From a virus (taxonomy: Duplodnaviria > Heunggongvirae > Uroviricota > Caudoviricetes): DNA of 64,000 bases. Positions 2,370 to 62,950 of this stretch are shown here, in pieces; the first letter of the stretch is position 1, and every line of letters starts with the position of its first letter. Made by a program: the position numbers and the translations under genes. The stretch spans positions 43,752-107,751 of the IMG/VR virus record IMGVR_UViG_3300045988_163275; one strand, 5' to 3'. Below the pieces are notes generated by a model. It searched no databases. It saw only the letters and a program-made list of their open reading frames with translations, and had not been told where the DNA came from.

Positions 2370-2426
2370 CCTGACGATTTATAAGATACCTGATTTATTA
2401 TAGTAGGTAAATACTTACTTATCTTT

Positions 2427-3023: not shown

Positions 3024-3599
3024 TTTGGCTCCAGAATCGTGCGCCGCGACGATTTTTGTTTTCTCGCGCGTGTGCGCACGCGTGCGTGTAAATAATAAAA
3101 AATTTTATAAAAGAAAAACTTACTTCCCAGAACAGGTTTTAATAAAACCTGAACTGAACGAACGAAGTGAGTGAAGTTCACCTCGAACGAAGTGAGAGGT
3201 TGTCTTTTCAGGTAATACTCTCCCAGGGAGGTGAGTACAAAATTTCCTCACCAACCTGGTCGTTTCATAACCTGAAAAGTTATGACCTAAGTCTACTGCC
3301 AGCTTAGGCTTGGGAAGTTATGGATGACAGCACCCCAGAACCGAGATCTTCCCACACTTTATGAAGGGGAGTACTGGAATCAACCTCTCGAAACACTCCA
3401 GACTCGACAATCATAAAGTGACCCTTCTCTCTGCTCACTTTGGTTCCCCCTTCCCCAACCCCTAAACGGTGCTGGTTCTACGCTGGTAGTGAGCTTTTTT
3501 AAACCTGACGCCAGTGACGCAATCCCCCACCCATCAGGTCGAGCTGCCGAAAGTATCCGGAAGCGGATAGATTGTATCACTGGTTAGTGGCGCTTTGAA

Positions 3600-3617
3600 T
3601 GGTAAGTACTTACCTAT
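3600..3617. promoter_or_regulatory. class-1 palindromic motif (GGTAAGTACTTACC core)
   Basis: Perfect palindrome in intergenic DNA; member of a family with about 20 copies. Confidence 0.45.
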
Positions 3618-3847
3618 TATATTGATTGATTAATTTCTCGCCCATGCAGCTGGACATTCAGAGCAAACACCTCATTGATCAGCTCACCCAACAACTGCTC
3701 CACCAGTTCTATGTGCTCGCCTGAATGAAGACACTTGAGCGACCATTCGTAGAGACTGAAAGCCTTATCGCGATCTTTCATCATGTCGCGTATCTTGGCC
3801 AGAAAATCGCTCTCAACGAGCGCTACGACGTTCGTCGGGTATATCAT
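3617..3847 (-). CDS. hypothetical small protein
   Basis: 76-aa ORF, no recognizable motif. Confidence 0.3.
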   Translation of the reverse strand: MIYPTNVVALVESDFLAKIRDMMKDRDKAFSLYEWSLKCLHSGEHIELVEQLLGELINEVFALNVQLHGREINQSI

Positions 3848-4049
3848 GATAATTTTCCTTACTGTGGTTCATAAAATCGATTCTAGAGCGTCTGGAGAGG
3901 GACTCCAGTGGGTTCTGGAGGTGTAAAACGGTCTGGGAGTTGTTTGGAAATCACGTCTTAAAAAGCCTGCGTCTGTATATATTAATAATTAGTACTTAGT
4001 TATTTATATATACGGAAGCAGGTTCTCAAACTAACTCCCAGACTGGTGT

Positions 4050-4643
4050 TTACGCTGCCTTTTTACGTGGTCTCTTCTTCCTGACAACATTGGCAGGGTC
4101 ATAACCACCCAGCTTTTTCATCACCGCCAGCGGTATCTTGCTGATGGTGTGCCCAGCTTCCTGACAGTAGCCACGGAAGATAAGCAACATGCTGCCACCA
4201 GGGTTGATGTTCACCTCCACCAGCCCAAGTTCAACATCCGGCTCAACGAACGCCACGCGGCCGCCAGACAAGATGACGGTTTCGTTGGCGCATTCAGCCG
4301 CACGCTCGTACCACTGCGTATCGAGGGATTGTGGTATCAGCATGACCGTCGTCACTCCACGCGCCTGCTCGCGAATGGCTGCGTCTATCCAGGGGGTGAT
4401 TTTGGAGTAGGGCGGGTTAAGGAACGCCACAGTGCCAGGTTCTCCCCAACTGCACTTGAGCGCATCACGCTCAACACCGATAAAGTTCGGCAGGAGAGCA
4501 TTATCTTTGTTGCAGGCGACGTCCACATCGAACTTTACGCCTATGTAACGTTGGATGGCGACAAACAACCACTGCGGTGTGCGCCAAAGGTCGCGAAGAG
4601 AGGCATCACGCTCTCGCTTTTTGATTTTTTCGGCTGCGATCAT
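4050..4643 (-). CDS. phage-type DNA N6-adenine methyltransferase (Dam-like)
   Basis: FLNPPYS catalytic motif and overall phage Dam-like pattern; palindromic motif 12 nt upstream of ATG. Confidence 0.75.
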   Translation of the reverse strand: MIAAEKIKKRERDASLRDLWRTPQWLFVAIQRYIGVKFDVDVACNKDNALLPNFIGVERDALKCSWGEPGTVAFLNPPYSKITPWIDAAIREQARGVTTVMLIPQSLDTQWYERAAECANETVILSGGRVAFVEPDVELGLVEVNINPGGSMLLIFRGYCQEAGHTISKIPLAVMKKLGGYDPANVVRKKRPRKKAA

Positions 4644-4654
4644 TACTTTACTCT

Positions 4655-4676
4655 GATAGGTAAATACTTACCTATT
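4655..4676. promoter_or_regulatory. class-1 palindromic motif ATAGGTAAATACTTACCTAT upstream of Dam-like gene
   Basis: 8-bp inverted arms ATAGGTAA/TTACCTAT, 12 nt upstream of start codon. Confidence 0.45.
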
Positions 4677-4797
4677 TTTTCATTTAATCCAACGGATAGC
4701 AAACAAAGAAGAACGCGCCAGATTCGCAAACGGGAAGCTCTCTGGCGCGTTTTATCGATGCTGGGTAAGCCAATTCATACCCAGCATCCTAAAGCTC

Positions 4798-5670
4798 TCA
4801 GGGTGCTTTAGATCGTGCAGAGGAACATTGTTCAATGGAATACTCCGCTATGAATTTTTTGACGATCGGCGACTCTTTATTAAGCGTTAGATTTCCACCT
4901 TCTCTGGTGGCAATGCCTGTGGCCGGAAACACAGCCATCATCTGGCCAGCCTGAGTCGAAGCCGTGTTAAGTGGATATGGTTTCTCCGGGTAGCTCATTA
5001 GCGCCAGTTTGATGCTATTGCTGGTCGCCGTGTTCGTATCAAGAATATGGCGCATTGCGATTACCGTGTAGACGCTGATTTCCGGGCCACCACTAAACCA
5101 GTTCAGGAGGTTTAAGATTTTGTCTTTCGCTTTGACCGGCGCGCCTTCAAATGCGGCAGTAAAGCGCTCACTATCCAGACCGGCTGTCACATAGAACGAT
5201 TCATCCTTACCCTCCAGCGTGAAGCGAGGTTTGGTCGGCGCACGCTTTGATTGTGCCTTCTGGTGTTTTGGCTGCTCTTCTTCAGGTTTAGGCCCAGACT
5301 CCACTGAAGGTAAAAGCGTTGGAGCTATATCGGTGGTCTCAGCGCTTCGAGCATCAAGTTCAGGTGTTGGCTCGTCCACTATCTCCGCAATAGGGCCACG
5401 CTCTGGCTCCTCGACCTTCACCGATTCGTGTGCAATCTCAAGCTCTTCCAGAACGCCACTCAGATCGCCGGTAGAGCTGACATTCATGACTTCATCTGCC
5501 ACCGCCTCGACTGGTTTTGCGATTGCATCATCCAGACCAGAAAGAAGATCGTCGATCTCGTCGACACCGCTCATTTTCGCAGCTTTCTGAACCGGTTCTT
5601 CGAGAGATTGCAGCATTGCAGTCAATTCATCCAGGTCATCGTTTTTAACAATGTTTGAAACTGCGCTCAT
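4798..5670 (-). CDS. hypothetical acidic protein
   Basis: ORF; start placed at ATG 5668-5670 preceded by AAGGAG; acidic N-terminal half. Confidence 0.45.
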   Translation of the reverse strand: MSAVSNIVKNDDLDELTAMLQSLEEPVQKAAKMSGVDEIDDLLSGLDDAIAKPVEAVADEVMNVSSTGDLSGVLEELEIAHESVKVEEPERGPIAEIVDEPTPELDARSAETTDIAPTLLPSVESGPKPEEEQPKHQKAQSKRAPTKPRFTLEGKDESFYVTAGLDSERFTAAFEGAPVKAKDKILNLLNWFSGGPEISVYTVIAMRHILDTNTATSNSIKLALMSYPEKPYPLNTASTQAGQMMAVFPATGIATREGGNLTLNKESPIVKKFIAEYSIEQCSSARSKAP

Positions 5671-5798
5671 TTTTAACTCCTTATGTTTTCGTTGGTGCAT
5701 TTCCGCGTTTTGGTTGAGCTTATTCTGGCAAAACCTATCAGGCAGAAAAGTCATAACTACAGGCAGTTAAAGGAACTGGAGGCAAAGAAAAAGCGCCA

Positions 5799-6353
5799 TC
5801 AGGCGCTTTCGAATGGGAGTTTGAAGAAGCCGTATTTCTCTCGGGCTTTGAAGAAACACTGCATCATCAGATCAGTATCGTAGAGAGCACTGTGGGCTTT
5901 CTCACGGTCGTAAGTGAACCCAAGTGAGAATGCCAGCTCTTCCAGGCGTGGGCGCTTCCCATCCTCGGTAGCCCACAGGGAAAATAGAGTGTCAACCAGA
6001 GGGATTTCTGGCAATTTCACTCCATAGCTTCCGAACTCGTGGCGAATGAACGGAAGGTCAAAAGCCTCCCCGTTATGGGCGACTAACGCGCTACATGCCC
6101 CCATATATGCAGCAATCTTACCTGCGTGATCAGCCAACAGCGGTTCAGCAGCCAGTTCTTCCAGAGAGATACCATGTACAGCCTGCGCCTTCGGATCGAT
6201 GCTACGACGCGGGTTGAAGCGCATCTCAAGGCTGTCAATGCGCTTCTGGGTTTCCAGTTCATAACGAGATATCGCGATTTCGATAATTTTGTGGCCGGAT
6301 GTGAAGTCCAGCCCCGTGGACTCAATATCGACGCCACCGACAATCGTGGTCAT
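5799..6353 (-). CDS. DnaQ-like 3'-5' exonuclease (DEDDh)
   Basis: Exo motifs VDIESTGL, HNGEAFDLPF, HSALYDTD. Confidence 0.75.
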   Translation of the reverse strand: MTTIVGGVDIESTGLDFTSGHKIIEIAISRYELETQKRIDSLEMRFNPRRSIDPKAQAVHGISLEELAAEPLLADHAGKIAAYMGACSALVAHNGEAFDLPFIRHEFGSYGVKLPEIPLVDTLFSLWATEDGKRPRLEELAFSLGFTYDREKAHSALYDTDLMMQCFFKAREKYGFFKLPFESA

Positions 6354-6362
6354 TGGTACTCC

Positions 6363-6782
6363 TTACAGCTTCTTCGCGCCTTTCAGCAGTGCGCCACGCA
6401 CAAACTGAGCAGCCTTTTTTAGTGCGTCCTCGCCGCTTTCGCAGACGACCGGCTCACGCCATTCGCCCGTTGACGTGTTGAGGAGCTGAATTTGGTTAGT
6501 CTCCAGGCAAACGGACACATACAAAACCGTACCGCCCGAGAGTTTGAGATGCATAGGAAACAGAGAGCGCTTGGTGCCGCCATTGAATTGCGACATCGCC
6601 GCATTAATGGCTTCACCAACCTCTTCCCCAACAAGACCTTGAACGGACTCAAACACTGCTCGGATAGCCAGACGTGCTTCACGTTCACTCATTAAGGAAC
6701 GGGATTGTTCGTCAGCAATACGGATCAGTGCTTCAATCGCTTTGCGATCTAATTCATCCGACAGGGGAAGTTCATCTATCAT
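6363..6782 (-). CDS. hypothetical protein
   Basis: ORF; start placed at MIDELPL ATG with GAGGA RBS. Confidence 0.4.
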   Translation of the reverse strand: MIDELPLSDELDRKAIEALIRIADEQSRSLMSEREARLAIRAVFESVQGLVGEEVGEAINAAMSQFNGGTKRSLFPMHLKLSGGTVLYVSVCLETNQIQLLNTSTGEWREPVVCESGEDALKKAAQFVRGALLKGAKKL

Positions 6783-6845
6783 TCTGTTTTTCCTCAATTT
6801 ATTTAGCGTGTCTTATTGTCACACTGCCCAACAGGGGAACAACAT

Positions 6846-7490
6846 TCAGTGGAAGGTCACTCGTCCTGTTATACGGCTCTCGATGTTTTCAGTGGCTCTT
6901 TCCAGCACACGCAATACCGATCTGGCTCGCGCCTCAACCGTGCGGCACTTTTCAGAGATAATGAAAACCTGCAAATCGCCGGTATGGGGAAGGGCGCTAA
7001 TTTTCGTCAGCTCGCCACACATAAGTGCATCGATGCGAGCAACATAGAGACGGTCAAGCGATCCTCGCTGGGGACGCGCGAGATCTTTGCTGGAAAGCTC
7101 AACGCCCGGGCGAAGACCCGCTATAGCATTAAAGTTGGAAATGGCCGCTTTGTGGCAAAACTGCTCAATGTCGAGAGCCAGCTCGATGCAGCGGTCTTCG
7201 TTGGTCTGGCCGACCAGGTCAAGCGTATAAGCCATGACATCGGCTGGCGTGCGGTCGATGACAAAACCTTCAACGCCGCGGGTGATCATCTCGATGTGTC
7301 TGGCAATCTCCATCTGAACCTGAAGACGCTCGTAAAGGGGCAAACGCTCGCCAACCTTCACCCCCAGACTGCTCATCAGCTTGCCAACACCGGCATCCAC
7401 ATACGGAATGCCATAGTGCGCATCGATGTACCTTGCCAGGGTTGTTTTCCCACTGCCCTGTGCGCCAGTGATTCCAATCCGGTAATCCAT
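6846..7490 (-). CDS. P-loop nucleotide kinase (putative dNMP kinase)
   Basis: N-terminal Walker A GITGAQGSGKTT; size and context next to DHFR and ThyA. Confidence 0.6.
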   Translation of the reverse strand: MDYRIGITGAQGSGKTTLARYIDAHYGIPYVDAGVGKLMSSLGVKVGERLPLYERLQVQMEIARHIEMITRGVEGFVIDRTPADVMAYTLDLVGQTNEDRCIELALDIEQFCHKAAISNFNAIAGLRPGVELSSKDLARPQRGSLDRLYVARIDALMCGELTKISALPHTGDLQVFIISEKCRTVEARARSVLRVLERATENIESRITGRVTFH

Positions 7491-7966
7491 TACGACCTTC
7501 TGTATACGATCTGCAAAAAGCCAGGCTCATCCTCATTTGCACGTTGGGTATAAGCCGTTTCGACTGGTACGAACCCTAAAGAACGCATCATTGGCGCCGG
7601 GAAGAACGCATCCGCGCCCGACACATCCACGCCAATATGCGACAGCCAGATCTCTTCAACGTGTGGCATAAAGAGCGAGTAAATCTGCCCGCCACCAATC
7701 ACCCAGACCGGATCTGGTAGTTTTAAAACGTCATCGATGCCAGCGGGGTAGAAACCATTGGGGATATAGCCACGAGAGCGCGTCAAAACGAGGTTATGGC
7801 GCTCTGGCAGCGGGCGTTTGAGACTTTCCATCGTCTTACGTCCCATCACGACAGTGGCGTTTTTGGTGAGTTGTTTGAACAGTTTCAGATCGGTCGGGCA
7901 ACGCCAGGGAAGTTCGTTGCCAATGCCGATTTCATAGTTGCGGCCGACAGCTGCAATCATCTTCAT
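7490..7966 (-). CDS. folA: dihydrofolate reductase
   Basis: MIAAVGRNYEIG...LPW...VVMGRKT...VIGGGQIY pattern typical of DHFR. Confidence 0.85.
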   Translation of the reverse strand: MKMIAAVGRNYEIGIGNELPWRCPTDLKLFKQLTKNATVVMGRKTMESLKRPLPERHNLVLTRSRGYIPNGFYPAGIDDVLKLPDPVWVIGGGQIYSLFMPHVEEIWLSHIGVDVSGADAFFPAPMMRSLGFVPVETAYTQRANEDEPGFLQIVYRRS

Positions 7967-39300: not shown

Positions 39301-39905
39301 TTCAGTGCGCTCGCCACTTTCATCGCCCGGACGTTAATCTGGTCGTAGAATGGGGTAGGGTGCGGATAAACCACGCTGTAGAAGTTATCGCGACCGCCAG
39401 CTGTGACCAGCGTACCGATAATTTTTGCGAAGTCCCGGCGCTGGAATACACTGCCAATGTCGGACGTCAGCAGGATGATGTTGCCTTTGGCATATGCGGC
39501 TGCCAGCTGCTCAAGCGCCAGACGCGGGACAAAGTAGAATTGCTCGCGCTTGTTCGCTAAGGTCATCAGTTCGCACACGTCGCGATAACCTTGTTCATTC
39601 TTTATCAGTGCCGTGAAGCAGTAGCTGCGATCACGAACTAATGATTCCATACATCTTCCTGACTCTTTCGCCAAGCGAGCGCGGTGCTCGTATGTCGGAT
39701 CGTCGACAACATTCAGCTTAACGCCACAAATTACCGACATGTCGTCGCCAGCGGCACGTTGCAGAGGGATTACACTGGCAATATTCATGCTGTCGGCGGA
39801 AATGACAGCGGTGTAGCCAGCGTCTCTCGCGATTTTCACCGCGTTTTCTGCTTTTAGAGCTGACTCTCCCAGGGAGAAGTCAGTTCTGACCATCAGAGCC
39901 TTCAT
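36399..39905 (-). CDS. dnaE: DNA polymerase III alpha subunit-like replicative polymerase (DnaE family)
   Basis: PHP-like N-terminus, GPGRGSSAGSLVAWCIGITNVDPIRHGLLFERFINPER palm motif, 1168 aa. Confidence 0.9.
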   Translation of the reverse strand: MKALMVRTDFSLGESALKAENAVKIARDAGYTAVISADSMNIASVIPLQRAAGDDMSVICGVKLNVVDDPTYEHRARLAKESGRCMESLVRDRSYCFTALIKNEQGYRDVCELMTLANKREQFYFVPRLALEQLAAAYAKGNIILLTSDIGSVFQRRDFAKIIGTLVTAGGRDNFYSVVYPHPTPFYDQINVRAMKVASALKIEPVAFYPAYYEAIDDADIKDIAHMVTNNIKIDQPHRLRIPHQRDNAVNGRRHLLEALKAFSVRMGVPVTAAMASTTQDTIIEACTWRWHELPPALPKMADDEPATLLKLAVAGLRKRLTTKEFGYTPPASEHRVYVERLKYEMDTLTRLGFCGYFLMVRDLMNHSRETGIPVGPGRGSSAGSLVAWCIGITNVDPIRHGLLFERFINPERLDLPDADLDFSQARRHEVIEYLNERYGEDYVAGIPNFTYLGAASALRDTARIYGVDAADMAVSKEFKNLEDDSLSLEELREQLASLDKYATKNPEAFKAACKLQSLMRGFGRHAAGMIVAGVPLVERTPVELRGNARCIAFDKRYCEAMGLIKLDVLGLATLDLLDSAKRYIKESTGEDINLDAIPLDDRKVLDGFAAGYTQGVFQLESGPMRKLLKDLGGGIEPMSFKTVVATTALFRPGPIQSGMLDDYVSVAKGFMAPHSIHPRLEEVTRETNGVLLYQEQIMQSSRVLAGFSMAEADALRSAIGKKNMDKMKAIGSDFVERAQAGWVTLSLKNGGTVEVHKHAKLDCSDGKRRSYSEAISDGIDYVEIVSEQEGLSKEKAQEIWDAFEKFGGYAFNKSHSVAYSLISYQSMWLKTHYPAEFFAAALTILGEDKHQGLVKDALTYGIRVLPPDVNVSSNRIEIRTLEDGSQVLYAPFSAVKGCSENGCQAIMRAREKVGGKFESLEQFEEAVEKRACNSRVRESLQRVGAFASIESGSLPATDPERLRDQAELMGNLVIDAVKASRPFEMNPKRSAEVNALMTRMAAEMGLGDDLIRPSIGIKPKIMVILDNANGNDGRTGYFMENGYDDFKAKLLTAGDLRMGDLYVTGVCKKVKDKEKDYTKDEIGQFTDFMREEINLVRPTYVLTCGSRATSLFNNKSKPSDLVGRKEYLPELDATVFYGFNPNILYFRPEEGERLEAILTDIAETINK

Positions 39906-43673: not shown

Positions 43674-43760
43674 TTTGTTTTCTGATGTGCGTAATTTATC
43701 ACTGTACGAACAGGCATCTAATCTGTTCGTACAGGCGCTAGAGAGGATGGGAGGGGGGTG

Positions 43761-43973
43761 TTAAATTGTGCGGACGGCTACTGAACCGCAGCCGGTATTG
43801 ATGAGAGTGAAGCACTTGCCCTTTAGCTCAAAGATGTATGCGGTTGCGTCTTTCATGCCAAGTAACAAAGACTTTGTTGGCAGTTCAGTGAGTATGGCTG
43901 CTGCCCCGTCAGCGTCAATTGAAACCGTATGTCCGACCTTAAGGGCGATCAAATTAGAAGTTATTTTTTTCAT
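43761..43973 (-). CDS. hypothetical small protein
   Basis: 70-aa ORF. Confidence 0.3.
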   Translation of the reverse strand: MKKITSNLIALKVGHTVSIDADGAAAILTELPTKSLLLGMKDATAYIFELKGKCFTLINTGCGSVAVRTI

Positions 43974-44229
43974 TTCATATCATCCAACTGAACACGTAAA
44001 TGCCTTGCAATACTACTACCTATTGTATCAATACGGAATACTTATATATCAAATACAACTTAGTTTTAAGTTCTTAAATGAGTTGTTTTTTAGATAGTTG
44101 TCTATTAATGAAGCCTTTTGCGGTCAATAACTCTACGAAAAAAAATAGATAAGTCTTTACAACACTAACCTTTGATGTAATATCAGTAAGCACTTACCAT
44201 ATAAAATCAAAACACGCAGGTTGATAATT

Positions 44230-44619
44230 ATGGCTACCAACGAAATAACAGAAGCTAAAGTAGGTCGCTATGCTGCTTACATTGACGCTTTAATCGCGAT
44301 TTCTCCGAAAAGCCAGGCGACCATCGCGAAAGAAGCAGGCTATAAAAATCCTAACAATCTTTCACTTATCAAGAGCGGCAAAATCCCGCTTCCGATCGAC
44401 AAGGTCAGAGCGTTGGCTAAAGCATTGGATGCCGATTCGGTCCGATTGATGCTAATGGTGCTGGAAGAGCGTCATCCAGAGCTGTTAGCGTTTTTTCGCG
44501 ACGAAGGCACAGCCCCTCTGACTAAAGATGAAAAACTAGTTCTGGAAGCCTTCCGTCGACGTTTCGGTGACCAACGTGGTGCGTCGGAGCGGGTTGTTGA
44601 GGCAATCAAGTCGCTATGA
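44230..44619 (+). CDS. HTH DNA-binding protein (XRE-like)
   Basis: SQATIAKEAGYKNPNNLSLIKSG helix-turn-helix pattern; divergent from integrase gene. Confidence 0.5.
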   Translation: MATNEITEAKVGRYAAYIDALIAISPKSQATIAKEAGYKNPNNLSLIKSGKIPLPIDKVRALAKALDADSVRLMLMVLEERHPELLAFFRDEGTAPLTKDEKLVLEAFRRRFGDQRGASERVVEAIKSL

Positions 44620-45717
44620 GAAATTTACACGGATTAGCTCAGTAGCGAGTCGATCTCCCTTGAACTTATGATCTATCTCCTCTAAATCCTGTTTCTCTAC
44701 GATTGATGCGATGTACGCCGAAAAACTGTTTAAGGCGTCTCGCATCTCGTCTATATAATCGTGTCGATCGTATACTCGATCTATCCCCTCAAGACTGTGG
44801 TTCATAATTTTGCGGGATACCTCCTGACTTATGCCTAACGCGGGGAAGTAACTACGCGCAGTACGACGCAAATCTCGGGGGGTAAATGGCTCAAGCTCCA
44901 TCAACTCTGGACGTTCTAAAATCCTTCTCAACGCCTGTGATATGGCCACCTTAGACATTGGCACATCCTCACCCTGTTTCTTGTTTGAAGGAACAAGCCA
45001 CTGGCTGCCTTTTCCGTATTTGATCAGCTCCTCAACACATTTGCGCATTAGCGGGCTTAATGGTAACGAGTGCTGGCGAGCCGATTTATTCCTCGTTCCT
45101 TGATTCCATAAATTATATTCGAGGTTGAATTCTGATCTTTTAGCTCGGAGCACTTCATCTGGTCGTCTGGCCGCTACAAGGCATAATCTGGCCGCCCACT
45201 TTGTACCCTCACATACGTTGAAGTAGTCCCATACATTCCAAAAGACCCAGACCTCTGCGTCGGTCAGTTTGCGCTCGCGCGGCGTGGGCTTCGCGCCACC
45301 GGCTACTCTGTTAAGCGACATATCGTTCAATGGGGATGTATCAATTAAGCCCTGAAATGCACACCAACTGAGAAACTGCTTCATCAGCGAGAACACACGT
45401 CTGCCCTGGACGATCTTACCTTCCAGTATCAGTGGGTTCACCAGCTGGTTGACCAAGACCCTACTTATATCACTTACCTTTACATCAGAGATATGCGGCA
45501 TTACATGTATCAAAACACAATGAACGGCTATTTCAGGTCGACGCCTCGTTATCAGTAAAGATAAGCGAGTGAATAACATGAAGGCAGAAGAAAACGACAT
45601 GTCTCCGTCGAATTTGGCGGTCGACACTGCCGACAAACCGGAAGCGCGTTCGAGGTACTCGATGGCTTCCCGAGAGGTATTTTCTGCTGCGCGTGCTTTA
45701 TCAAAGGTGTTTTTCAT
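44614..45717 (-). CDS. tyrosine recombinase / integrase-like protein (N-terminus atypical)
   Basis: C-terminal catalytic region FTPRDLRRTARSYF...NHS...RVYDRHDY; first about 70 aa do not resemble an integrase arm domain. Confidence 0.6.
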   Translation of the reverse strand: MKNTFDKARAAENTSREAIEYLERASGLSAVSTAKFDGDMSFSSAFMLFTRLSLLITRRRPEIAVHCVLIHVMPHISDVKVSDISRVLVNQLVNPLILEGKIVQGRRVFSLMKQFLSWCAFQGLIDTSPLNDMSLNRVAGGAKPTPRERKLTDAEVWVFWNVWDYFNVCEGTKWAARLCLVAARRPDEVLRAKRSEFNLEYNLWNQGTRNKSARQHSLPLSPLMRKCVEELIKYGKGSQWLVPSNKKQGEDVPMSKVAISQALRRILERPELMELEPFTPRDLRRTARSYFPALGISQEVSRKIMNHSLEGIDRVYDRHDYIDEMRDALNSFSAYIASIVEKQDLEEIDHKFKGDRLATELIRVNFS

Positions 45718-45889
45718 CGTCCACTCACTGAGTGAAGCCTTTTACTGTATATATAAACAGTATATTAGGCATAAGTTTTTGTATGATCAACCATAAAATA
45801 GCCTGTTTTATACAATGATTCCATACTTAATAGGTATGGAATCATTTAAGGACGGAAATTTAAATTCTGAGATTTTATTAGCGTGATTG

Positions 45890-46300
45890 TCACGGATTAG
45901 TGAGAGCTTGAAATGCGGCGGCGTATGCAGCGATATCGGCCATAATTTTTGGATCTTTCGCAAACTGATGTGCGTTGTTAGGGAAGATTGCCAATAGGCT
46001 ATACACATCTTGGAAATGTGCATGTTGACTGTAAACGAGTGCGCGGTCGCTTGTGCAATTGAATCTGTTGCGGCTGCTGGTTCGTTCTTGCTTCGTGAGC
46101 AAGAGATGAACGTGATAAACGCGGGAGGACACAATAGCACCCGGAGCCGTATACGGGCCATCTTTCCCGAATACGGTTGGGTACATGCCTTGTTTAAGCG
46201 ACGTGAAATCGTTGAGTAACGTGATCTTTAAATCAGGCTTTATATCGAAGGTCGGCTGTAAAAATTGGGCGTAACTATCACTGTTCCATGTGACCTTCAT
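45890..46300 (-). CDS. hypothetical protein (possible toxin-like, unverified)
   Basis: 136-aa ORF; weak impression of YafO-type toxin from memory only. Confidence 0.3.
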   Translation of the reverse strand: MKVTWNSDSYAQFLQPTFDIKPDLKITLLNDFTSLKQGMYPTVFGKDGPYTAPGAIVSSRVYHVHLLLTKQERTSSRNRFNCTSDRALVYSQHAHFQDVYSLLAIFPNNAHQFAKDPKIMADIAAYAAAFQALTNP

Positions 46301-46309
46301 CGATCAACC

Positions 46310-46918
46310 TCAATGGAATGAGAAGTTGGCGAAGACGTCCTCATCGATGAGGCCAGTCTGCGATTCGATGACGTCTACGTCGTTAAAACACTGATTTAAA
46401 ATCAATAGCAGATCAGAGATAGCCAAACGATACTCAGTTACAGAATCGCTCAGGCGTTTCAAGTAGGGATGAGGTTGCTCAGAGTCACGAATCAACTTGT
46501 TAACGAATCCCTCCAAACCACGAATGGTCAGGTCAACGTTCTTCAATTCTTCGTAACGGCTTTCACCGAAGCTGGTGCGAATCTTTTCCGCTTTCCATCC
46601 AGAGATGGCATGAGCCAGGCGAACGTGTTTCGCCGTCAATTCTGCGAGCTTGCTTTCGATCTCCGCCAGCTGCGCCGCATCGCTGTTCTCTTGAACAGGT
46701 ATACCTGCGGTTCTCACATAGGCTTGTTCTTTGAATCCAGCAAATTTCGCAGAGTGCTTCACCGTGCCACGGAAGCGTCGATAGCCAAGCGGCTCAATAA
46801 AGGCACGCCCAAATTTAGCTTTAGGCTTTGCAGTTGAAAAGCGCGAGGCGTTAGAGGTCACAGTAGCAAGGGCATTGCTAATGACACTCATATCTTCCAG
46901 GCAATTTTCTAAACGCAT
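46310..46918 (-). CDS. hypothetical protein
   Basis: 202-aa ORF. Confidence 0.45.
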   Translation of the reverse strand: MRLENCLEDMSVISNALATVTSNASRFSTAKPKAKFGRAFIEPLGYRRFRGTVKHSAKFAGFKEQAYVRTAGIPVQENSDAAQLAEIESKLAELTAKHVRLAHAISGWKAEKIRTSFGESRYEELKNVDLTIRGLEGFVNKLIRDSEQPHPYLKRLSDSVTEYRLAISDLLLILNQCFNDVDVIESQTGLIDEDVFANFSFH

Positions 46919-47013
46919 AAAACCTCTTAACTACTCAATGGCTCGTAACTAAGTGTACGCTGTGTTGATGAAAGCGACAAATAATAAACGGCCCCAAAAG
47001 GAGCCGTATTGTA

Positions 47014-47262
47014 TTACAGAGTGCTCGCAAAAGCAGCAAATTCTGTATAGCCGCCGATAGGATCACCATTAACGAACACCTGCGGTATGGTTTCCACCGG
47101 TTTGCCAACCAGGTCGCTCAACTTCTCTTTGTCGATGCCGGCAGACACAATATCGATGTATTCGTAATCGCCAAAGCCGTGGCCGTGCAGCTGCTTCGCC
47201 AGCTCGACCGCACGTTTGCAGTATGAGCAATTATCGCGTCCGTAGATAACGACCTTCATCAC
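47014..47262 (-). CDS. glutaredoxin-like protein
   Basis: VVIYGRDNCSYCKRA CxxC thioredoxin-fold motif. Confidence 0.75.
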   Translation of the reverse strand: MMKVVIYGRDNCSYCKRAVELAKQLHGHGFGDYEYIDIVSAGIDKEKLSDLVGKPVETIPQVFVNGDPIGGYTEFAAFASTL

Positions 47263-47879
47263 TTCGCCTCGTGCAGCTGCTGCTTGAGAAGATAGCCTTC
47301 CAGCGGCCAGATTTTGGCAATCGCGTTCTGACGTGTAATTTTACGCCCGATCTCCGGGTCAAAGTTCTCCGGGCTGGCGCACGCAGACTCGCCGGTTACG
47401 GTAAAGCCGTTCTTGGCCACCTCTGGCTTTAAGCAATATTCAAGGAATGAGCCACCCAAACGCTTCTGTAGCACGTCATAGACGGGCCGGAAGAACGGAG
47501 CGAACTTCTCGCTCATGTCGCCCGGAAGGAAGCCCAGATCTTCTTCTGCTTGCAATACCGGACGCGTCACGATGATCTTCCCGACTTCCTTATCCAGCAG
47601 ACGCTGCGCTGCGACGGCAGCAGCCAGGTAGGTTTTGCCGCAGCCGGCTTCACCAGTGGCGAACGTCAGAGATTTGGTGTCGAGGGAGATAAGATAGTGG
47701 GCCTGGGCCTCGTTTCGCGCTTCGATGGGAGAGTTGTCGCGTTTAGGTTTTGGTGGCAGAGCAGGGGCGACAGCCAGCTCGTCAACGATGATTGTGTCAA
47801 TTTCGTAGCCGTGGATGCGTGGCTTTGACTTCAGTGCCTGACGAGCTGCGCGACGCGCCTGTTTACGTTTGTTTCCCAT
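47259..47879 (-). CDS. PhoH-like ATPase
   Basis: Walker A GEAGCGKTYLA and PhoH-like downstream blocks; start placed at MGNKRKQ ATG with AAAGGA RBS. Confidence 0.75.
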   Translation of the reverse strand: MGNKRKQARRAARQALKSKPRIHGYEIDTIIVDELAVAPALPPKPKRDNSPIEARNEAQAHYLISLDTKSLTFATGEAGCGKTYLAAAVAAQRLLDKEVGKIIVTRPVLQAEEDLGFLPGDMSEKFAPFFRPVYDVLQKRLGGSFLEYCLKPEVAKNGFTVTGESACASPENFDPEIGRKITRQNAIAKIWPLEGYLLKQQLHEAK

Positions 47880-47926
47880 ATTGAGTCCTTTCAAGTGAGT
47901 AACTGAAAGAACTATACCGACAAATA

Positions 47927-47946
47927 ATAGGTAAGTCATTACCTAT
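47927..47946. promoter_or_regulatory. class-1 palindromic motif ATAGGTAAGTCATTACCTAT upstream of phoH-like gene
   Basis: Same arms as other copies. Confidence 0.45.
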
Positions 47947-47992
47947 TTTTCGTGCATTATCCCTCTACCATGTAGAGGGATATCGTCATGAC

Positions 47993-48805
47993 TCACGGCA
48001 GTTTTGCTCTAATTTCGAGTAATTTCTGTGCCGTTATGCTGATTTCATACGCCAAATCTTGTGTTTGGTTAATGATTCCGTAATAGCGCTCAACCTGATC
48101 AGGATAAAAACGTCTGATATGGGGGATATCGATATAATCATAATACCCAAGCCCTCCAGCAGAATGTTCTCTGAACAGCGCCCAAAAGTTGTTCACTTTC
48201 CCGACCAACTCCATACGGATTGTTTCTAAAACAACATCATTGAAGCTGTAAAAGGGGTTATGGGCAATATTATCAAATGCGTAGAGAGGGTCGGTAATGT
48301 CGGTGCTAACTTTTGCCCGGAACTGTTCGCTCTTCAGAATTTGGAGGTAGTTGTAATTAAAAATATCAGTAATGGCTTTTAAAACACCGACATCTCTTTC
48401 TGAGTAATTGTTCTGACTCACCTGGTGCGTCATCTGAAGCAGAAGAGATTGTTGAGTTTCGGCCAGCTGCTTCCAGTTTTTCAATTGCTCAACGGAATAG
48501 ATAGTGTAGTCAGAGTCAATGAGTGCGCCATGTGAACGACACATCCATATACCGTTATCAATCGAGCTTCGCTGTTCTGGGGTCAAGCTAGGATCATATC
48601 TCGGTCCACCCGGCGCTGCTGCTGTAATATGTGCCGCGATACCATTATTAATCCTGCCGTTTGTATCACTGCTATCTGGGCCGACTGTTACCTGGTTGCA
48701 TCCAAGAAAAGAGCACTTCCAGCCTACGCGTTCGGCTAGTGTTCGCTTCACCGATGGAGAAAAATCATCTCTGTTACTCACGTTTACCTCGCTGTGTTTA
48801 AACAA
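47993..48805 (-). CDS. HNH nuclease domain protein (N-terminal HNH, C-terminal unknown)
   Basis: CSFLGC...AHITAAAPGGPRYDPSLTPEQRSSIDNGIWMCRSHGALID HNH-like pattern. Confidence 0.45.
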   Translation of the reverse strand: MFKHSEVNVSNRDDFSPSVKRTLAERVGWKCSFLGCNQVTVGPDSSDTNGRINNGIAAHITAAAPGGPRYDPSLTPEQRSSIDNGIWMCRSHGALIDSDYTIYSVEQLKNWKQLAETQQSLLLQMTHQVSQNNYSERDVGVLKAITDIFNYNYLQILKSEQFRAKVSTDITDPLYAFDNIAHNPFYSFNDVVLETIRMELVGKVNNFWALFREHSAGGLGYYDYIDIPHIRRFYPDQVERYYGIINQTQDLAYEISITAQKLLEIRAKLP

Positions 48806-48820
48806 TCTTATGGCTATTTG

Positions 48821-49375
48821 TTAGTGGCGTTTATCTTCTTCCAGACGAGCCGTTTTTAATTGTTTATCGGTAAAGGTAAGCAACGTTACGCCCTCTTTTT
48901 CGTTCAAAAGGCCTGCACCGTTAATCACCATTACTAACCGATCCTTCCCTCGATAGACTTCATAATACTTGCCCGCACCACAGGTCTTTGTCTCAATACA
49001 GTCCATACCAGATATAGCTTCTTGGTCGAAAATTCTGTCTTTCGTTGCTACCGGTTTTCCGTACTCCTTTGTCAGCATTTCACCGATCTGCATGAACGTA
49101 TACTTGCCGACATTTGTCGTTAAAGACGATTCAACCTTTCCATCAATGAGATTGCCATACGTATGCGGTTCCTGCTCCTTCGGTGCATTTTTATCTTGAA
49201 GTGCGAAGGCTTCAATATTGGGTGTTTGCTCTTGGAACTGGGCTTTATAGTTCTGTGCAAGATCGCTTTTATCTCTACCTATTAAGGTGATTTTGTCGAT
49301 CTCCGACTCGTTACATCCCGTCAGAGCGAACGCGATCACCAGAGATGCGAGAATATTGAGGTTGCGCTTTTTCAT
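48821..49375 (-). CDS. lipoprotein
   Basis: Signal peptide with lipobox MKKRNLNILASLVIAFALTGC. Confidence 0.6.
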   Translation of the reverse strand: MKKRNLNILASLVIAFALTGCNESEIDKITLIGRDKSDLAQNYKAQFQEQTPNIEAFALQDKNAPKEQEPHTYGNLIDGKVESSLTTNVGKYTFMQIGEMLTKEYGKPVATKDRIFDQEAISGMDCIETKTCGAGKYYEVYRGKDRLVMVINGAGLLNEKEGVTLLTFTDKQLKTARLEEDKRH

Positions 49376-49502
49376 TGGCTTATCTCCATGTTTTACTGCC
49401 ACATCCTATCACCCACATGCAGGCAGTCTAATGCTGCCGTTGCTAAATGAAGGCCCAAAGGTGGTAAAACCATACGTGGAAATATTCTGGAGTCAACCCA
49501 GC

Positions 49503-49530
49503 AAAAAAGGGGCCGAAGCCCCTTTGATTT
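49503..49530 (-). terminator. rho-independent terminator downstream of tRNA
   Basis: GGGGC cgaa GCCCC hairpin with TTTTTT on minus strand. Confidence 0.6.
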
Positions 49531-49677
49531 TTGCGCTAAAAAGTGTTGGTACAATGCTAAGAAGCAATGGTTAAGAACGTCTGCCGTGTCTATCACAGCG
49601 CTGAACGGTCTGGCGACATTTGCGGAGTCTTTCCGTTCGGACGGTGGTGGCGAACTCCAAACCGTTCAGCGCTATGT

Positions 49678-49752
49678 TGGCGATGGTGGGTGGACTCGAA
49701 CCACCGACCAGTTGATTAACAGTCAACCGCTCTACCACTGAGCTACACCATC
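49678..49752 (-). tRNA. tRNA-Asn (anticodon GTT), CCA encoded
   Basis: Cloverleaf by hand: acceptor GATGGTG/CACCATC, D-stem GCTC/GAGC, anticodon stem GTTGA/TCAAC with loop CTGTTAA, T-arm GGTGG TTCGAGT CCACC, discriminator G then CCA. Confidence 0.85.
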
Positions 49753-50500
49753 ATTTTTCGCGGCGGTACTTGTTCATGGACAACCAGGCAACCAAGAACT
49801 TTCCCGCAACTTGCACTTTACGTTAGTGCCAGACGAGGCTTGTGGCTCGCTCACATAGAGCGAAGATCTGGAATCCTTCTCGGCTGTTGATGGCCGCCAG
49901 ACTCTTCGATCTTATTGGATGTATGGAATCATCCATGTTGTGAAACCAGGGGCTACATAGGCAACAATGATTTCACCAGAGGGTTAAAGAATCCTGCTTT
50001 CACAACGTTGAGGCCACTGAACCGATTTATGTTCGACCCAACATATTGATCAGTCACTACAGCTCTGTGGAATCACCTGTATGATTAAAAGAAAAACAGT
50101 GACCTCAACGTTGTGCGCTGGCTAACCAAGCCAGCCGGGTTACGTCGCCGCTTTTAACCCAAGATTAAACGACATAAGTAATGGAAATGACGTAACAGGA
50201 TGGACGGTCAGCTGGCTGAAACCGGGATGATGGAATGGAATGAGGAAACCAACCGCCCATCCTGTTACTTCATCGAATAGGGCATGGGTGGTGCAACATG
50301 CCCTATCCTGCGTTCTGCAATCACACTCGCTCAGTGTGTCCCATTTCGGTGACGAGGCTGGAAACTGACCTCGCTGGTGTTTGGCTTCTTAGGCTACTGC
50401 CAGGTATGCATCTTCGTTTGCAGTTATATTTAACGTTCAAACAGTCGCATCTCAACGAAAACAAAGTGATCTTATACATATTAGATAAGTAAGTAAATAC

Positions 50501-50806
50501 TTATCTATCTGTAATGCGTTTAGTTGCTATCTTTTTGATCAGGCTCCCCTTTTGTTCCGGAGTTCTCGTGATGATGGCGGTAAAACGCTTCGCTTGAATA
50601 GTGATAGTTTCGTTTTCCTTGAGTTCGCCGTAATGCGTCTCTAACAGGGACCCCAGACGCCACAGACCGTCGTCTATGCGTTTATGGCTGGCGAATCTTA
50701 TCAGCAGTAGCTTTACGATTAACTGACCAACGTAAAAGGCAAATCCGAAGCCGGCCGCAACAAGGTAGGTTGCCAGCCACCAGTCGAAGGAAGTCAAATT
50801 GCTCAT
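50501..50806 (-). CDS. hypothetical membrane protein
   Basis: N-terminal hydrophobic segment WWLATYLVAAGFGFAFYVGQLIV. Confidence 0.35.
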   Translation of the reverse strand: MSNLTSFDWWLATYLVAAGFGFAFYVGQLIVKLLLIRFASHKRIDDGLWRLGSLLETHYGELKENETITIQAKRFTAIITRTPEQKGSLIKKIATKRITDR

Positions 50807-51326
50807 TTTCGCACTCCCGTCTCGTGAACAACCCGATACACACGCTTACCGACACGAAGTGTTTTGGTTTTCAGTTCCTGCTGGACCAGGGCGCGGCAGA
50901 TTGCGAGGCCGAGACCCACGCCACCAGTGAATGATAAAATGATGTATGGAATCATCAGTATGCCCCCGCCTCAGTCAATTGCTGCAACAACAAATAACCT
51001 TTTTCAGTCAGTTGATAGTTCTCAATACATCCCTTTGGAGAAACGTTGGCGACAAGATTCATGCGCTCCAGTTTGGCTCTGGTCTTCGGCTTCCAGTTGG
51101 CATAGAACTCCTTCCACTTGCTAATTTCACGCAGGGTTTCCTTCTCTCGTTTACTTAACATGATCATCCTTAATCTCCTTCAGTGTGTCCGTGATATCTA
51201 CTATGCGATAAATACGACCTCGCCTTTGCATGACACCGGCTTTTACGTAATCGTGGATACAGCTGGACATAACCAGACTTCCGATAACAATGCCGACGAC
51301 TAAAAATACAAACATCCAGCCGAGCA

Positions 51327-58994: not shown

Positions 58995-59659
58995 TATTCT
59001 TCCTCCAGACTCAAGATGTAATCTACAAACTCTTCGAACTCGGCTTCTGCCTTCTTATCGCGTTCAGCGCCAGTCATTTCAAAGATAGAACGACCTGCCT
59101 CTTCCGCATCGTCATAAACGTTACGGTTGTACAGGTTAACCGGCGCAGCCTCGATGCCGAAAGTTTCGACAATTTCCTTCGCGGCCAGAATACGTGATAC
59201 CTGGGAAGGCAATGACGGACACTGGTTTATTACCGCGCGGATCTTAACTTTCTCGTTCACATTGCGAACGTTGTCGATAATCGGGTCGATATCACGCAGA
59301 GATTTCAAATCACGACGTTTAGGGCGCAGCGGGATGATGATTACATCAGCCATAAGCATCGCCAGACGCTGAATTTCGGAGTCAAAGCCACCAGCATCTA
59401 CCACTACATAATCAGTTCGCCCCTGAAGCGATTTAAGATGTTTGACGATGTCGTCCTGCACATAAGCGAACGGGATCAGTTCAAGATCTTCGTTCTGGCG
59501 ACGGTCTTCACACCAGCTGGTCGTGGTGCGCTGGATATCGATATCGGTGACGTGAACCTTCTTTTTCTTTTTAACTTTGAGACATACCGCAATTTGCTGG
59601 GCAACGGTAGATTTGCCTGGGCCGCCTTTTGTGCCGCCAACCACAATGATCTTGGTCAT
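58994..59659 (-). CDS. parA: ParA/ParF-type partition ATPase
   Basis: Deviant Walker A GGTKGGPGKST, Walker B DYVVVDAGG. Confidence 0.8.
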   Translation of the reverse strand: MTKIIVVGGTKGGPGKSTVAQQIAVCLKVKKKKKVHVTDIDIQRTTTSWCEDRRQNEDLELIPFAYVQDDIVKHLKSLQGRTDYVVVDAGGFDSEIQRLAMLMADVIIIPLRPKRRDLKSLRDIDPIIDNVRNVNEKVKIRAVINQCPSLPSQVSRILAAKEIVETFGIEAAPVNLYNRNVYDDAEEAGRSIFEMTGAERDKKAEAEFEEFVDYILSLEEE

Positions 59660-59692
59660 TGGTGAGTTTCCTTTGCGTGAATTATTGTCGTA

Positions 59693-62362: not shown

Positions 62363-62950
62363 TTACTCTGCTGGTATTGTTGGCCAGTCAATATCCGGTG
62401 CCGTTGATGTGTCAATGCGGTTCAATAAAACTCTATACTTCTTCCATGCAGTCAGCAACGATGCTTCTTCCTCCGTTGCAATCTCCAAATCTACAGCATC
62501 CTGAAGTGGCGCAATGTGCTCGCTGGCTACCTGCATCAGACTTTTTTTTGTTTCTTCCGCTTCCCGTATCTGAAACAATTTTTCTGTTTCCTCATCCTTC
62601 TCCCAGGATGTGCCGTCCCACTTCTGATATTCCCCATCCGGTGATAACCAGGTGACATTTTCCGGTAATGGCCCAAGTTCAGAAATAAACAACGCGTCCC
62701 CTGATTCCACGTCATAGACCGTTTTACCCCTGTGGTCTTCAACGAGACTCCATGATTTATTTTCGCTATTGAATACGGCCACGAAGCCAGCAGGTACATC
62801 CGGTGGCGCTATATCCGTAGAATAAGCTGGCAGCCCTGTATGAGGTGGAATATATGCATCACCTTCACCAATAAATTCATTGGTTCCGGCCAACAGATTA
62901 TAAATTTTTATGGTCCGTGGTTGTTCACTCATTGTGAAGTCCATGTTCAC
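62363..62950 (-). CDS. tail fiber assembly protein (Tfa-like chaperone)
   Basis: N-terminal [28 protein letters not shown] and C-terminal WPTIP typical of Tfa proteins. Confidence 0.75.

Follow-up and report, generated by a model that had tools for sequence, protein, structure and literature searches.

A conserved 13-7-13 inverted-repeat site beside an arm-less tyrosine recombinase in SSU5-type phage-plasmids

A 64,000-nt stretch of tailed-phage DNA (IMG/VR record IMGVR_UViG_3300045988_163275, positions 43,752 to 107,751; hereafter the window) carries a tyrosine recombinase gene, annotated as an integrase, around which a 12-mer, GTATGGAATCAT, recurs. The region matches Salmonella phage SSU5, the Salmonella Typhi plasmid pHCM2, the Yersinia pestis plasmid pMT1 and the Escherichia coli phage-plasmid Cyrano, together with hundreds of IncFIB plasmids of ~105-125 kb, classed as “non-mobilizable”, from Klebsiella, Escherichia, Enterobacter, Citrobacter and Yersinia. 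The window is a phage-plasmid of the pHCM2/SSU5/pMT1 type, with the lifestyle of a low-copy circular plasmid, and the locus is the replication or early region of such an element. Its genes encode, in order, a dnaE-like polymerase, a CobS-like ATPase, a CobT-like protein, a 70-aa protein, an XRE-type regulator, the integrase and cargo proteins; these are followed by a glutaredoxin, PhoH, an HNH protein, a lipoprotein, a transfer RNA (tRNA) for Asn, a 750-bp non-coding stretch, small open reading frames (ORFs) and a DNA ligase. An earlier note on this DNA, made from the sequence alone, proposed that the 12-mer marks either a nested integrative island or the sites of a regulator. Its gene calls were mostly correct: ARAGORN recovered the tRNA-Asn, Pfam the glutaredoxin and the integrase, and the lipoprotein has the lipobox LTGC. 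The features central to the argument are as follows.

44230-44619, plus strand: XRE-type helix-turn-helix (HTH) regulator, 129 aa from the ATG at 44230 or 132 aa from the TTG at 44221.
44614-45717, minus strand: tyrosine recombinase (“integrase”), 367 aa, PF00589, with core-binding and catalytic domains.
45743-45762, no strand: LexA (SOS) box TACTGTATATATAAACAGTA, between the site and the start codon, overlapping the end of the predicted integrase promoter.
45814-45846, no strand: candidate core recombination site, AATGATTCCATAC - TTAATAG - GTATGGAATCATT, with perfect inverted arms of 13 bp and an asymmetric 7-bp spacer.
45847-46986, minus strand: variable cargo slot, here a YafO-family toxin gene (45890-46300) and, upstream of it, a gene for a 202-aa protein (46310-46918).

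Five exact copies of the 12-mer occur in the window. Those at 45834-45845, 49921-49932 and 50944-50955 (all plus strand) had been seen before; two more were found at 39641-39652 and 45815-45826 (both minus strand). A search allowing up to one mismatch returned these five, all exact, against 0.39 expected, and none of 100 shuffles reached five, which rules out a chance origin. Copies with two mismatches were at chance level (9 versus 5.2 expected). The palindrome that the earlier note had described near the integrase is also real: its arms, at 45814-45826 and 45834-45846, flank a 7-bp spacer, and the whole lies 97-129 bp upstream of the integrase ATG (45717, minus strand). With perfect arms in a 13-7-13 layout, it falls within the geometry of simple recombination sites (inverted elements of ~11-14 bp around a spacer of 6-8 bp), and 7 bp is the cleavage stagger, or overlap length, of lambda-type integrases.

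The spacer, at 45827-45833 in the window, varies in a discrete manner. Across 88 viral contigs, read in the orientation of the integrase, it was CTACTAT in 36, CTATTAA (the form in the window) in 24, TTGGTAG in 20 and TTGTAAG in eight, giving at least four alleles between invariant arms. This pattern hints at heterospecific sites, since it is what such sites of the lox/FRT type look like. In the wider family one spacer occurs in both orientations, as CTATTAA and as TTAATAG, which hints at occasional spacer inversion. Rfam has no family for the palindrome region or for the non-coding stretch; weak matches to sok, snoRNA and tmRNA fell far under their gathering scores. A literature search did not find GTATGGAATCAT in this context, nor any account of the site or of the role of the integrase in SSU5-type elements. 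A terminus-like layout, with KOPS or Ter sequences around dif, was rejected: the copies lie within ~13 kb, and the site in pHCM2 (17.4 kb) is not opposite repA (104.7-105.8 kb). We know of no similarity between the 12-mer and the Ter consensus.

The recombinase falls into phrog_1 (integrase; E=1.5e-46) and matches PF00589 over residues 173-319 with 36.2 bits (cut-off 27.1); its match to PF22022, the central domain, is under the cut-off. The earlier note had considered its N-terminus atypical, and this proved to be so. The N-terminus is a family-specific extension of ~70 aa with no arm-binding domain, PF13356 gives no match, and the NCBIfam model PRK09692 (P4/CP4-57-type) aligns only at model positions 137-394 of 413. 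In a database search, the relatives formed a compact family of ~365 aa reaching down to 43-44% identity, none listed with PF13356, after which identity dropped to 33% or less; only at that level did homologues bearing PF13356 appear. In 15 diverse homologues (to 43% identity), R184/R185, K211, R281-DL-R284 and Y316 are invariant, and position 307 (H307) is occupied by His in 13 and by Gln in the other two; catalytic roles were assigned by motif position and not by structure superposition. An AlphaFold2 model (predicted local distance difference test, pLDDT, 80.6) has the predicted two-domain C-clamp fold, core-binding plus catalytic. Foldseek matched this model best, with probability 1.00 over ~300 columns, to Tn1549 Int (82-397) and DNA-bound lambda Int (75-356), and the matched portions are the arm-less portions of those enzymes. 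A specific relationship to Cre was not found, either as a sequence match in the PDB or with Foldseek, where Cre chains ranked 33rd or lower (E>=0.04). By these comparisons the enzyme is a member of the integrase clade by descent and a simple two-domain recombinase by predicted architecture. No Xis-like gene was identified among the family matches of the window proteins.

Evidence that the palindrome is the target of this recombinase comes from their joint conservation. The integrase is present in 939 plasmid records, and the 13-7-13 site lies upstream of its orthologue, at roughly 50-215 bp from the start, in the 9 plasmids and phages examined and in 63/63 full-length species-representative loci. 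The arm sequences belong for the most part to either of two dialects, GTATGGAATCAT(T) or GTCTGGAGTCAY(A), with GTATGGAATCACA as a lineage variant; in full, the forms upstream of orthologues are GTATGGAATCATT, GTATGGAATCACA and GTCTGGAGTCAYA. The first of these is found in pHCM2/SSU5-type phage-plasmids and the second in a divergent Klebsiella phage-plasmid (integrase 58% identity), and GTCTGGAGTCAY(A) is found at ~45-50% identity in megaplasmids of Pantoea, Rahnella, Erwinia and Ewingella and in elements of Xenorhabdus, Morganella and Pectobacterium. In every dialect both arms change together and dyad symmetry is kept. The dialects track the integrase clades, as would be expected if site specificity co-evolves with the recombinase. 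An XRE homologue adjoins the integrase only in phage-plasmid contexts. Because some 50 megaplasmid loci have both integrase and site but lack any XRE homologue closer than 3 kb, the palindrome, judged by this distribution, belongs to the integrase and not to the XRE gene.

The replicons themselves are informative as well. There is one full site per replicon in the two complete plasmids scanned, pHCM2 and the divergent Klebsiella plasmid. No integrated state with attL and attR was found: the palindrome is intact, and the 939 matches are all plasmid records. Among 5,426 complete E. coli genomes the 33-mer was on 0 chromosomes, in a search that detects only identical 33-mers, and a hunt for an integrated copy in contigs of 0.2-1 Mb carrying P0004 brought back only plasmid contexts of ~105 kb.

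The LexA box between site and gene suggests how the recombinase may be controlled. The window has just two matches to CTGT-N8-ACAG, of which TACTGTATATATAAACAGTA alone has an A/T spacer. This box is kept at the same place in pHCM2, pMT1, Cyrano, pJH51-3 and both Klebsiella lineages; the divergent Klebsiella plasmid has no other canonical box, and pHCM2 has one more. (The second pHCM2 box, TACTGTATAAATAAACAGTA at record position 77636, lies between a hypothetical gene and ydfZ, outside the homologous region.) The integrase promoter was read by eye on the minus strand, with a -35 element TTGATC at 45790-45785, a 17-nt gap and a -10 element TAATAT at 45767-45762; its hexamers match 8/12 consensus positions and were not reported by a promoter scan. 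Given that the box is near-consensus and conserved, we infer that LexA regulates the integrase. In Cyrano, ciprofloxacin causes a 39-fold induction (PMC9928086).

The XRE gene, which the earlier note had placed divergently from the integrase gene, is in fact convergent with it, the two 3' ends overlapping by 6 bp. The protein matches phrog_8 (transcriptional regulator; E=1e-10) and, weakly, HTH_31 and HTH_3; neither its translation nor Pfam revealed a peptidase domain in its 129-132 aa. It is 67% identical to its Cyrano orthologue CYRAN_45, which is annotated as a “putative repressor” and expressed in the lysogen (PMC9928086). In all lineages inspected, transcription of the integrase gene runs antisense into the XRE gene; that this matters for induction is speculation. 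A 16-nt inverted match (94%; 44145-44160 and 50493-50508, ATAGATAAGTCTTTAC and GTAAATACTTATCTAT) joins the promoter region of the XRE gene to a short invariant palindrome, TAAGTATTTACTTA, immediately upstream of a structured-RNA candidate described below, and the two places could share an operator.

We put at roughly 0.6 the probability that the 12-mer is the arm of a simple lox/dif-type site for the adjoining recombinase, and that the system most likely serves the upkeep of plasmid monomers through multimer resolution. Resolution is proposed because a single simple site lies by the recombinase, because the enzyme is arm-less and an Xis-like gene was not among the family matches, and because the replicons are low-copy circles. 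That the integrase binds and recombines the palindrome, and does so in resolution, we infer from sequence. In this model, two recombinase monomers would bind the 13-bp arms, the two sites in a plasmid dimer would synapse, and strand exchange across the 7-bp spacer would convert the dimer to monomers, letting partition work. Phage DNA that enters the cell with terminal redundancy could be made circular in the same way. Through the LexA box at the integrase promoter, the supply of recombinase would rise in the SOS response, which would be the time both of more recombination-made multimers and of phage-plasmid induction.

There are parallels with known systems. As with P1 Cre/loxP, the host is a phage-plasmid, the enzyme has core-binding and catalytic domains only, the site has 13-bp inverted arms around a short asymmetric spacer and lies near the gene in one copy per replicon, and dimer resolution and circularisation are the presumed functions. 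Unlike Cre/loxP, the spacer is 7 bp and not 8, there are a LexA box and solitary half-sites, and Foldseek gives E ~0.04-0.1 for Cre versus 3e-6 for Tn1549 and lambda Int. The F plasmid ResD/rfsF system, like which there are other plasmid-borne tyrosine resolvases, also belongs to a low-copy enterobacterial plasmid, with a site just upstream of the recombinase gene and a resolution role that is presumed here; the IncFIB/phage-plasmid context and the arms differ. Lane et al. are said to have reported in 1986 that the ResD recombinase can also act as a DNA-binding regulator. The P4/CP4-57- and lambda-type integrases are the nearest relatives (PRK09692, PF22022 plus PF00589, lambda and Tn1549 folds) and share the 7-bp overlap length. 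In contrast to them, the system described here has no PF13356, no arm-type sites or Xis-like gene identified and symmetric 13-bp arms, and resides on a plasmid and not in a prophage.

Several observations weigh against multimer resolution by a simple site. No recombination product and no second full site were seen, the activity of the enzyme being predicted from its sequence, and in the H-x-x-R motif all 15 homologues have Arg (R281) where the first His would stand. The phylogeny is that of P4- and lambda-type enzymes, not of Cre or Xer, so that integration at some chromosomal attB is conceivable. To our knowledge, LexA control is not a usual feature of plasmid resolution systems. SSU5 exists as a phage although it has neither the integrase nor the site. 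A degenerate A/T-rich motif, roughly CAGATTTCAnnAnAAC in the orientation of the integrase, persists ~10-27 bp past the cargo-side arm (~45850-45880 in the window) in both arm dialects, without co-variation with the arms. The functional site may thus be larger and asymmetric; the motif could be the site of an accessory factor or the -35 region of an outward promoter. Lastly, a model of resolution alone leaves without a role three conserved solitary half-sites, which the more distant phage-plasmids do not have. These solitary copies, a degenerate copy and an adjoining RNA candidate are as follows.

39638-39655, minus strand: solitary copy 1, GATGTATGGAATCATT, inside the dnaE-like gene at codons C-M-E-S-L.
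45100-45111, minus strand: degenerate copy TTATGGAATCAA, inside the integrase gene; it reads GATGTATGGAATCAA in pHCM2, pMT1 and Klebsiella.
49918-49933, plus strand: solitary copy 2, GATGTATGGAATCATC, ~170 bp upstream of tRNA-Asn, at the 3' edge of the RNA candidate.
49918-50471, minus strand: candidate structured non-coding RNA of ~550 nt, between a 101-aa ORF and tRNA-Asn.
50941-50956, plus strand: solitary copy 3, GATGTATGGAATCATC, over the ATG of a 50-aa ORF (50803-50955, minus strand) and the stop of an upstream 70-aa ORF.

The three solitary copies share a longer 15-16-mer, GATGTATGGAATCAT(C/T), which in copies 2 and 3 is the same 16-mer. Fourteen nucleotides of copy 1 are invariant between flanks that vary (window, pHCM2, pMT1 and Klebsiella) and are retained in SSU5; the DnaE segment that carries them is not conserved in the Moellerella and Pectobacterium phage-plasmids. 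Copy 2 is invariant in 12 lineages with diverging flanks. Copy 3 is kept in SSU5, pHCM2, Cyrano and Klebsiella pR48_3, and the 50-aa ORF at which it lies (phrog_6302) is conserved. The core 10-mer is found at no other place in the 106.5 kb of pHCM2, and in two complete plasmids all copies lie within ~13 kb of the site. In the Moellerella and Pectobacterium phage-plasmids, the 20 kb on each side of the integrase gene are free of solitary copies, and none were found in the megaplasmids. A scan of viral contigs for the 15-mer returned mostly chance matches in unrelated contigs, and its one use was to supply SSU5-like loci. As a conserved site, the copy within the integrase gene was rejected, being degenerate in the window and not conserved across the family; it is probably lineage-specific or a by-product of coding. 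Two further interpretations were discarded. The solitary copies are not degenerate full sites, as the partner arm at 7-bp spacing by copy 2 matches at 3/13 positions, and a longer palindrome (GATG...CATC) around them has outer bases that are not conserved in relatives.

Our leading guess is that the solitary copies are bound by monomers of the integrase. In the corresponding dual-role model, the integrase would recombine the full site, and monomers on half-sites would regulate or roadblock the units of dnaE, the tRNA and non-coding RNA, and the small ORFs. We consider this unlikely overall, though several data are consistent with it. Along 12-13 nt the solitary copies have the sequence of the arm, and they lie close to the full site. 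One solitary copy of the divergent Klebsiella plasmid, located in a cargo-side gap without annotation, carries the same lineage-specific change as that plasmid's own arms (GTATGGAATCACA), which points to the same binding protein, as far as a single sequence event can. There is also a precedent in the SPbeta protein MrpR (YopR), which has a recombinase fold, is among the predicted fold matches of the integrase and binds a dispersed 15-bp element of the phage genome, SPBRE; integrases that repress their own synthesis are cited in the same work (PMC10516654). The differences are that MrpR has lost its catalytic residues and is a master repressor, whereas the present enzyme keeps R-K-R-Y, has a full site and is accompanied by a separate XRE repressor candidate. 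Interpretation is confounded by the dependence on just one independent covariation event, by the absence of solitary copies from the more distant phage-plasmids and the megaplasmids, and by the location of copies 1 and 3 in coding sequence, where the protein may account for part of the conservation. Moreover, SSU5, without an integrase, keeps copies 1 and 3 intact and copy 2 with one change, and an SOS-induced repressor of replication genes would be counter-intuitive.

A model in which the solitary copies act at the RNA level, with the structured RNA pairing with and controlling the messenger RNA (mRNA) of dnaE or of the integrase, is more doubtful still. The RNA candidate is 97-98% identical to SSU5, pHCM2 and pECC2783_b, versus ~88-94% for flanking segments. 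An alignment of 12 lineages, down to ~72% identity, gave 114 predicted pairs in 14 helices on the minus strand, with 99.3% of cells paired; 11 pairs had compensatory double changes, compared with 0-4 in slid controls, and 0/500 shuffles matched the observed values. Many invariant G-U pairs fit the minus strand only, and Rfam has no family for the RNA. Copy 2 is invariant at the edge of this covariation-supported RNA, and copy 3 spans a start codon. In every lineage the left-hand copies are all on the minus strand and the right-hand copies all on the plus strand, so the two groups are mutually complementary in minus-strand transcripts. The genes concerned all have the minus strand as their coding strand. 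In its transcripts, AAUGAUUCCAUACAUC is the sequence of the right-hand copies, at the 3' edge of the RNA and over the start codon of the 50-aa ORF, and GAUGUAUGGAAUCAUU is that of the left-hand ones, in dnaE mRNA and, in some lineages, integrase mRNA, giving 15-16 nt of perfect complementarity between same-strand transcripts. This arrangement comes from syntenic genomes and is effectively one observation. Pairing between transcripts also leaves the identity with the recombinase arm unexplained, and the Klebsiella solitary copy changes with the arms at positions 12-13 even though that plasmid has no dnaE copy. In addition, RNAalifold pairs copy 2 internally, its UUCCAU with an upstream AUGGGA, and two one-sided changes preserve that pairing.

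Both ideas can be combined. The arm may have been recruited in the pHCM2/SSU5/pKpn lineage as a dispersed 15-mer signal, read by integrase monomers or through pairing of the ~550-nt RNA with mRNA, and the LexA-controlled integrase locus, with its antisense transcription into the repressor gene, might then be part of an SOS switch between plasmid maintenance and lytic replication, beyond serving in resolution. We offer this tentatively and think it unlikely.

The site also marks the edge of the main cargo slot of the family. BLAST homology with pHCM2 and pJH51-3 ends at 45846/45848, the outer edge of the cargo-side arm, and that with pHCM2 resumes at 46987. At least eight unrelated cargo sets adjoin the same arm, past which only the degenerate A/T-rich motif persists. 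The YafO-family toxin and 202-aa genes are found in the window, pECC2783_b and a Kluyvera plasmid; pHCM2 has an unrelated 492-bp gene, pJH51-3 two other genes, one Klebsiella plasmid a colicin-immunity gene and another a type I restriction-modification system. In Y. pestis pMT1 the cargo is the caf1R-caf1M-caf1A-caf1 F1-capsule operon (2113-7903), which ends ~630 bp from the same palindrome. The toxin in the window matches PF13957 (79.7 bits against a cut-off of 25; E=2e-22). It is a member of the YafO family by sequence and not an equivalog of E. coli YafO, because its NF007377 score of 54.5 bits is under the equivalog cut-off of 153 bits. The 202-aa protein (phrog_13546), encoded directly upstream, is by position a possible antitoxin; it is much larger than YafN, and neither Pfam nor PHROG gave a YafN-like match.

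This slot raises the question of integron-like cargo capture, in which a LexA-controlled recombinase would insert circular DNA at the palindrome. The break in homology at the arm in at least eight cargo types, including caf1 in pMT1, would be expected under such a model, and LexA control, known for integron integrases, would be a shared trait. As in integron IntI/attI, a recombinase gene with a predicted LexA box lies by its site, and variable cargo starts there. The conserved -35-like motif faces the cargo, and the site-adjoining cargo gene of Cyrano, CYRAN_43, is expressed 723-fold above background in the lysogen (PMC9928086). Nonetheless, capture is improbable. Scans with the 12-mer and of complete plasmids revealed neither another full site nor a half-site at the far end of the cargo, and capture by the integrase is therefore not claimed. 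Unlike integrons, there are no attC-like repeats or cassette arrays at the cargo boundaries, the cargo consists of ordinary multi-gene sets in variable orientation, and IntI (2a3v) ranks under lambda Int in fold matches. The cargo genes in the window run towards the integrase gene and not away from the site, and a permissive intergenic gap by a constrained site would give the same breakpoint.

The second proposal of the earlier note, sites of a regulator, fares somewhat worse and can be regarded as decidedly improbable. Here the 12-mers would be operators of the XRE repressor: paired copies would control the integrase and cargo genes, and single ones the small-ORF operon, the tRNA region and dnaE. 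Asymmetric operators scattered over a genome are known from P1 C1, and the copies in the window extend across 11 kb on both sides of the regulator gene, within or close to genes of lytic replication. The orthologue of that gene, moreover, is annotated as a putative lysogeny repressor expressed in lysogens (PMC9928086). However, the palindrome persists and co-varies with the integrase in the ~50 loci that have no nearby XRE homologue; Moellerella and Pectobacterium keep the XRE gene but have no solitary copies near the integrase; and there is no 12-mer around the XRE promoter.

Whether the surrounding block is accessory, as the earlier note supposed, has a divided answer: the block is partly accessory, and the integrase and XRE genes are backbone. 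The order ligase ... integrase / XRE / 70-aa gene / cobT / cobS / dnaE is kept as far as the Moellerella and Pectobacterium phage-plasmids. Because they hold the same position between ligase and cobT even there, the integrase, XRE and 70-aa genes are ancestral backbone. The glutaredoxin, Gp49, PhoH, HNH and lipoprotein genes vary by lineage, as does the cargo stretch, and Cyrano has no PhoH, HNH or lipoprotein gene. SSU5 has no trace of 43778-49634 (5.86 kb), which holds the XRE, integrase, glutaredoxin, phoH, HNH and lipoprotein genes, the site, the cargo and part of the 70-aa gene, truncated at 43778. The SSU5 junction (SSU5 ~3768-3777) is a 7-bp repeat, CGGACGG, found at both ends of the block in the window. 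The gap is a microhomology deletion, SSU5 looks like a deletion derivative without its lysogeny regulator, and this loss is what makes the block partly accessory. Base composition is uninformative about foreignness (GC 0.38-0.54 inside, 0.46-0.53 in the flanks).

A nested island, with the integrase block inserted by tRNA-Asn and the 12-mers as att sites or scars, is highly improbable: the accessory-looking genes, the end of the SSU5-missing block 43 bp from the tRNA-Asn 3' end and the place of the integrase in a P4-type clade (PRK09692), whose members usually target tRNA genes, would suit it, but the reading is largely refuted by synteny, with the integrase/XRE/70-aa order the same in distant genera, the SSU5 junction falling in CGGACGG and not in the 12-mers, the 12-mers not flanking variable DNA (one lies 4 kb outside, in dnaE), the full palindrome intact inside the block and not split, and no arm-binding domain or Xis-like gene identified.

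The pair of arm-less recombinase and 13-7-13 site, with its apparent LexA control and its position at the edge of a cargo hotspot, is conserved, and we found no description of it in the literature. The integrase has long been annotated; a description of its target was not found. If the site is its cognate, the 33-bp sequence provides a testable maintenance function for the recombinase of phage-plasmids that are common, as pHCM2/SSU5/pMT1 types, in Salmonella Typhi, Yersinia pestis, Klebsiella, E. coli and Enterobacter. It is also a precise landmark of a hotspot that receives the F1 capsule operon, toxin-antitoxin, restriction-modification and immunity genes. The natural heterospecific spacers and two arm dialects make the pair a candidate for genome engineering. 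The predicted SOS-responsive element is of interest in phage-plasmids, since our search found no description of their induction mechanism, and the solitary copies with the adjoining structured RNA could expose a regulatory layer.

The remaining features of the region are given here for completeness.

43702-43734, no strand: two 12-bp dyads CTGTWCGWACAG with centres 21 bp apart, lying 54-86 bp upstream of the true start of the cobT-like gene (~43648).
43761-43973, minus strand: conserved 70-aa gene (phrog_2627, E=2e-30), divergent from the XRE gene and annotated in pHCM2, pMT1 and Cyrano.
47014-47262, minus strand: GrxA-type glutaredoxin (PF00462, E=1e-10), annotated in relatives.
47259-47939, minus strand: PhoH/Gp49 fusion ORF (PF02562 positions 2-101 of 205 and PF13876 positions 35-82 of 82).
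47993-48805, minus strand: 270-aa HNH protein, with an N-terminal HNH nuclease domain of the defence-effector kind.
48821-49402, minus strand: predicted lipoprotein, signal peptide ending LTG|C, phrog_15156.
49678-49752, minus strand: tRNA-Asn (GTT), found by ARAGORN and by Rfam (tRNA, 76 bits).

At the left edge, the palindrome of the earlier note exists and is longer than the 10-bp arms then given: CTGTACGAACAG (43702-43713) and CTGTTCGTACAG (43723-43734) are 12-bp arms with a 9-bp gap. At up to one mismatch this dyad had 3 matches, versus 0.46 expected. Across SSU5, pHCM2, pECC2783_b, pJH51-3 and pMT1 the arms stay the same and the gap differs; the dyads were not found in Cyrano, Klebsiella, Moellerella or Pectobacterium. 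They are a candidate operator pair for the cobT-cobS-dnaE replication operon, or a candidate RNA hairpin.

The gene previously called PhoH is PhoH in its N-terminal half only; that half is fused in frame, at 47413, to a C-terminal part of the Gp49 family, through a 748-bp deletion relative to pECC2783_b that also took out a 204-bp gene. The fusion is probably non-functional, as far as its sequence tells. The HNH assignment, for which Pfam HNH_2 gives merely E=0.22, gained support from PADLOC (PDC-M68A, E=1e-22), with further matches to CBASS-type HNH “Effector” models and to SduA (Shedu-type), and the gene of the 270-aa protein is possibly a stand-alone defence gene; these matches concern the N-terminus, and the C-terminal 130 aa gave no assignment. 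For the lipoprotein, which the earlier note had linked to superinfection exclusion, PADLOC and Pfam gave no family, and its single match, phrog_15156, has no assigned function, so that nothing here speaks for or against such a role. Elsewhere in the window there are a tRNA-Lys (59591-59671, plus strand) and an Rfam match to the IS009 RNA (62403-62601, minus strand; 191 bits, above the gathering score).

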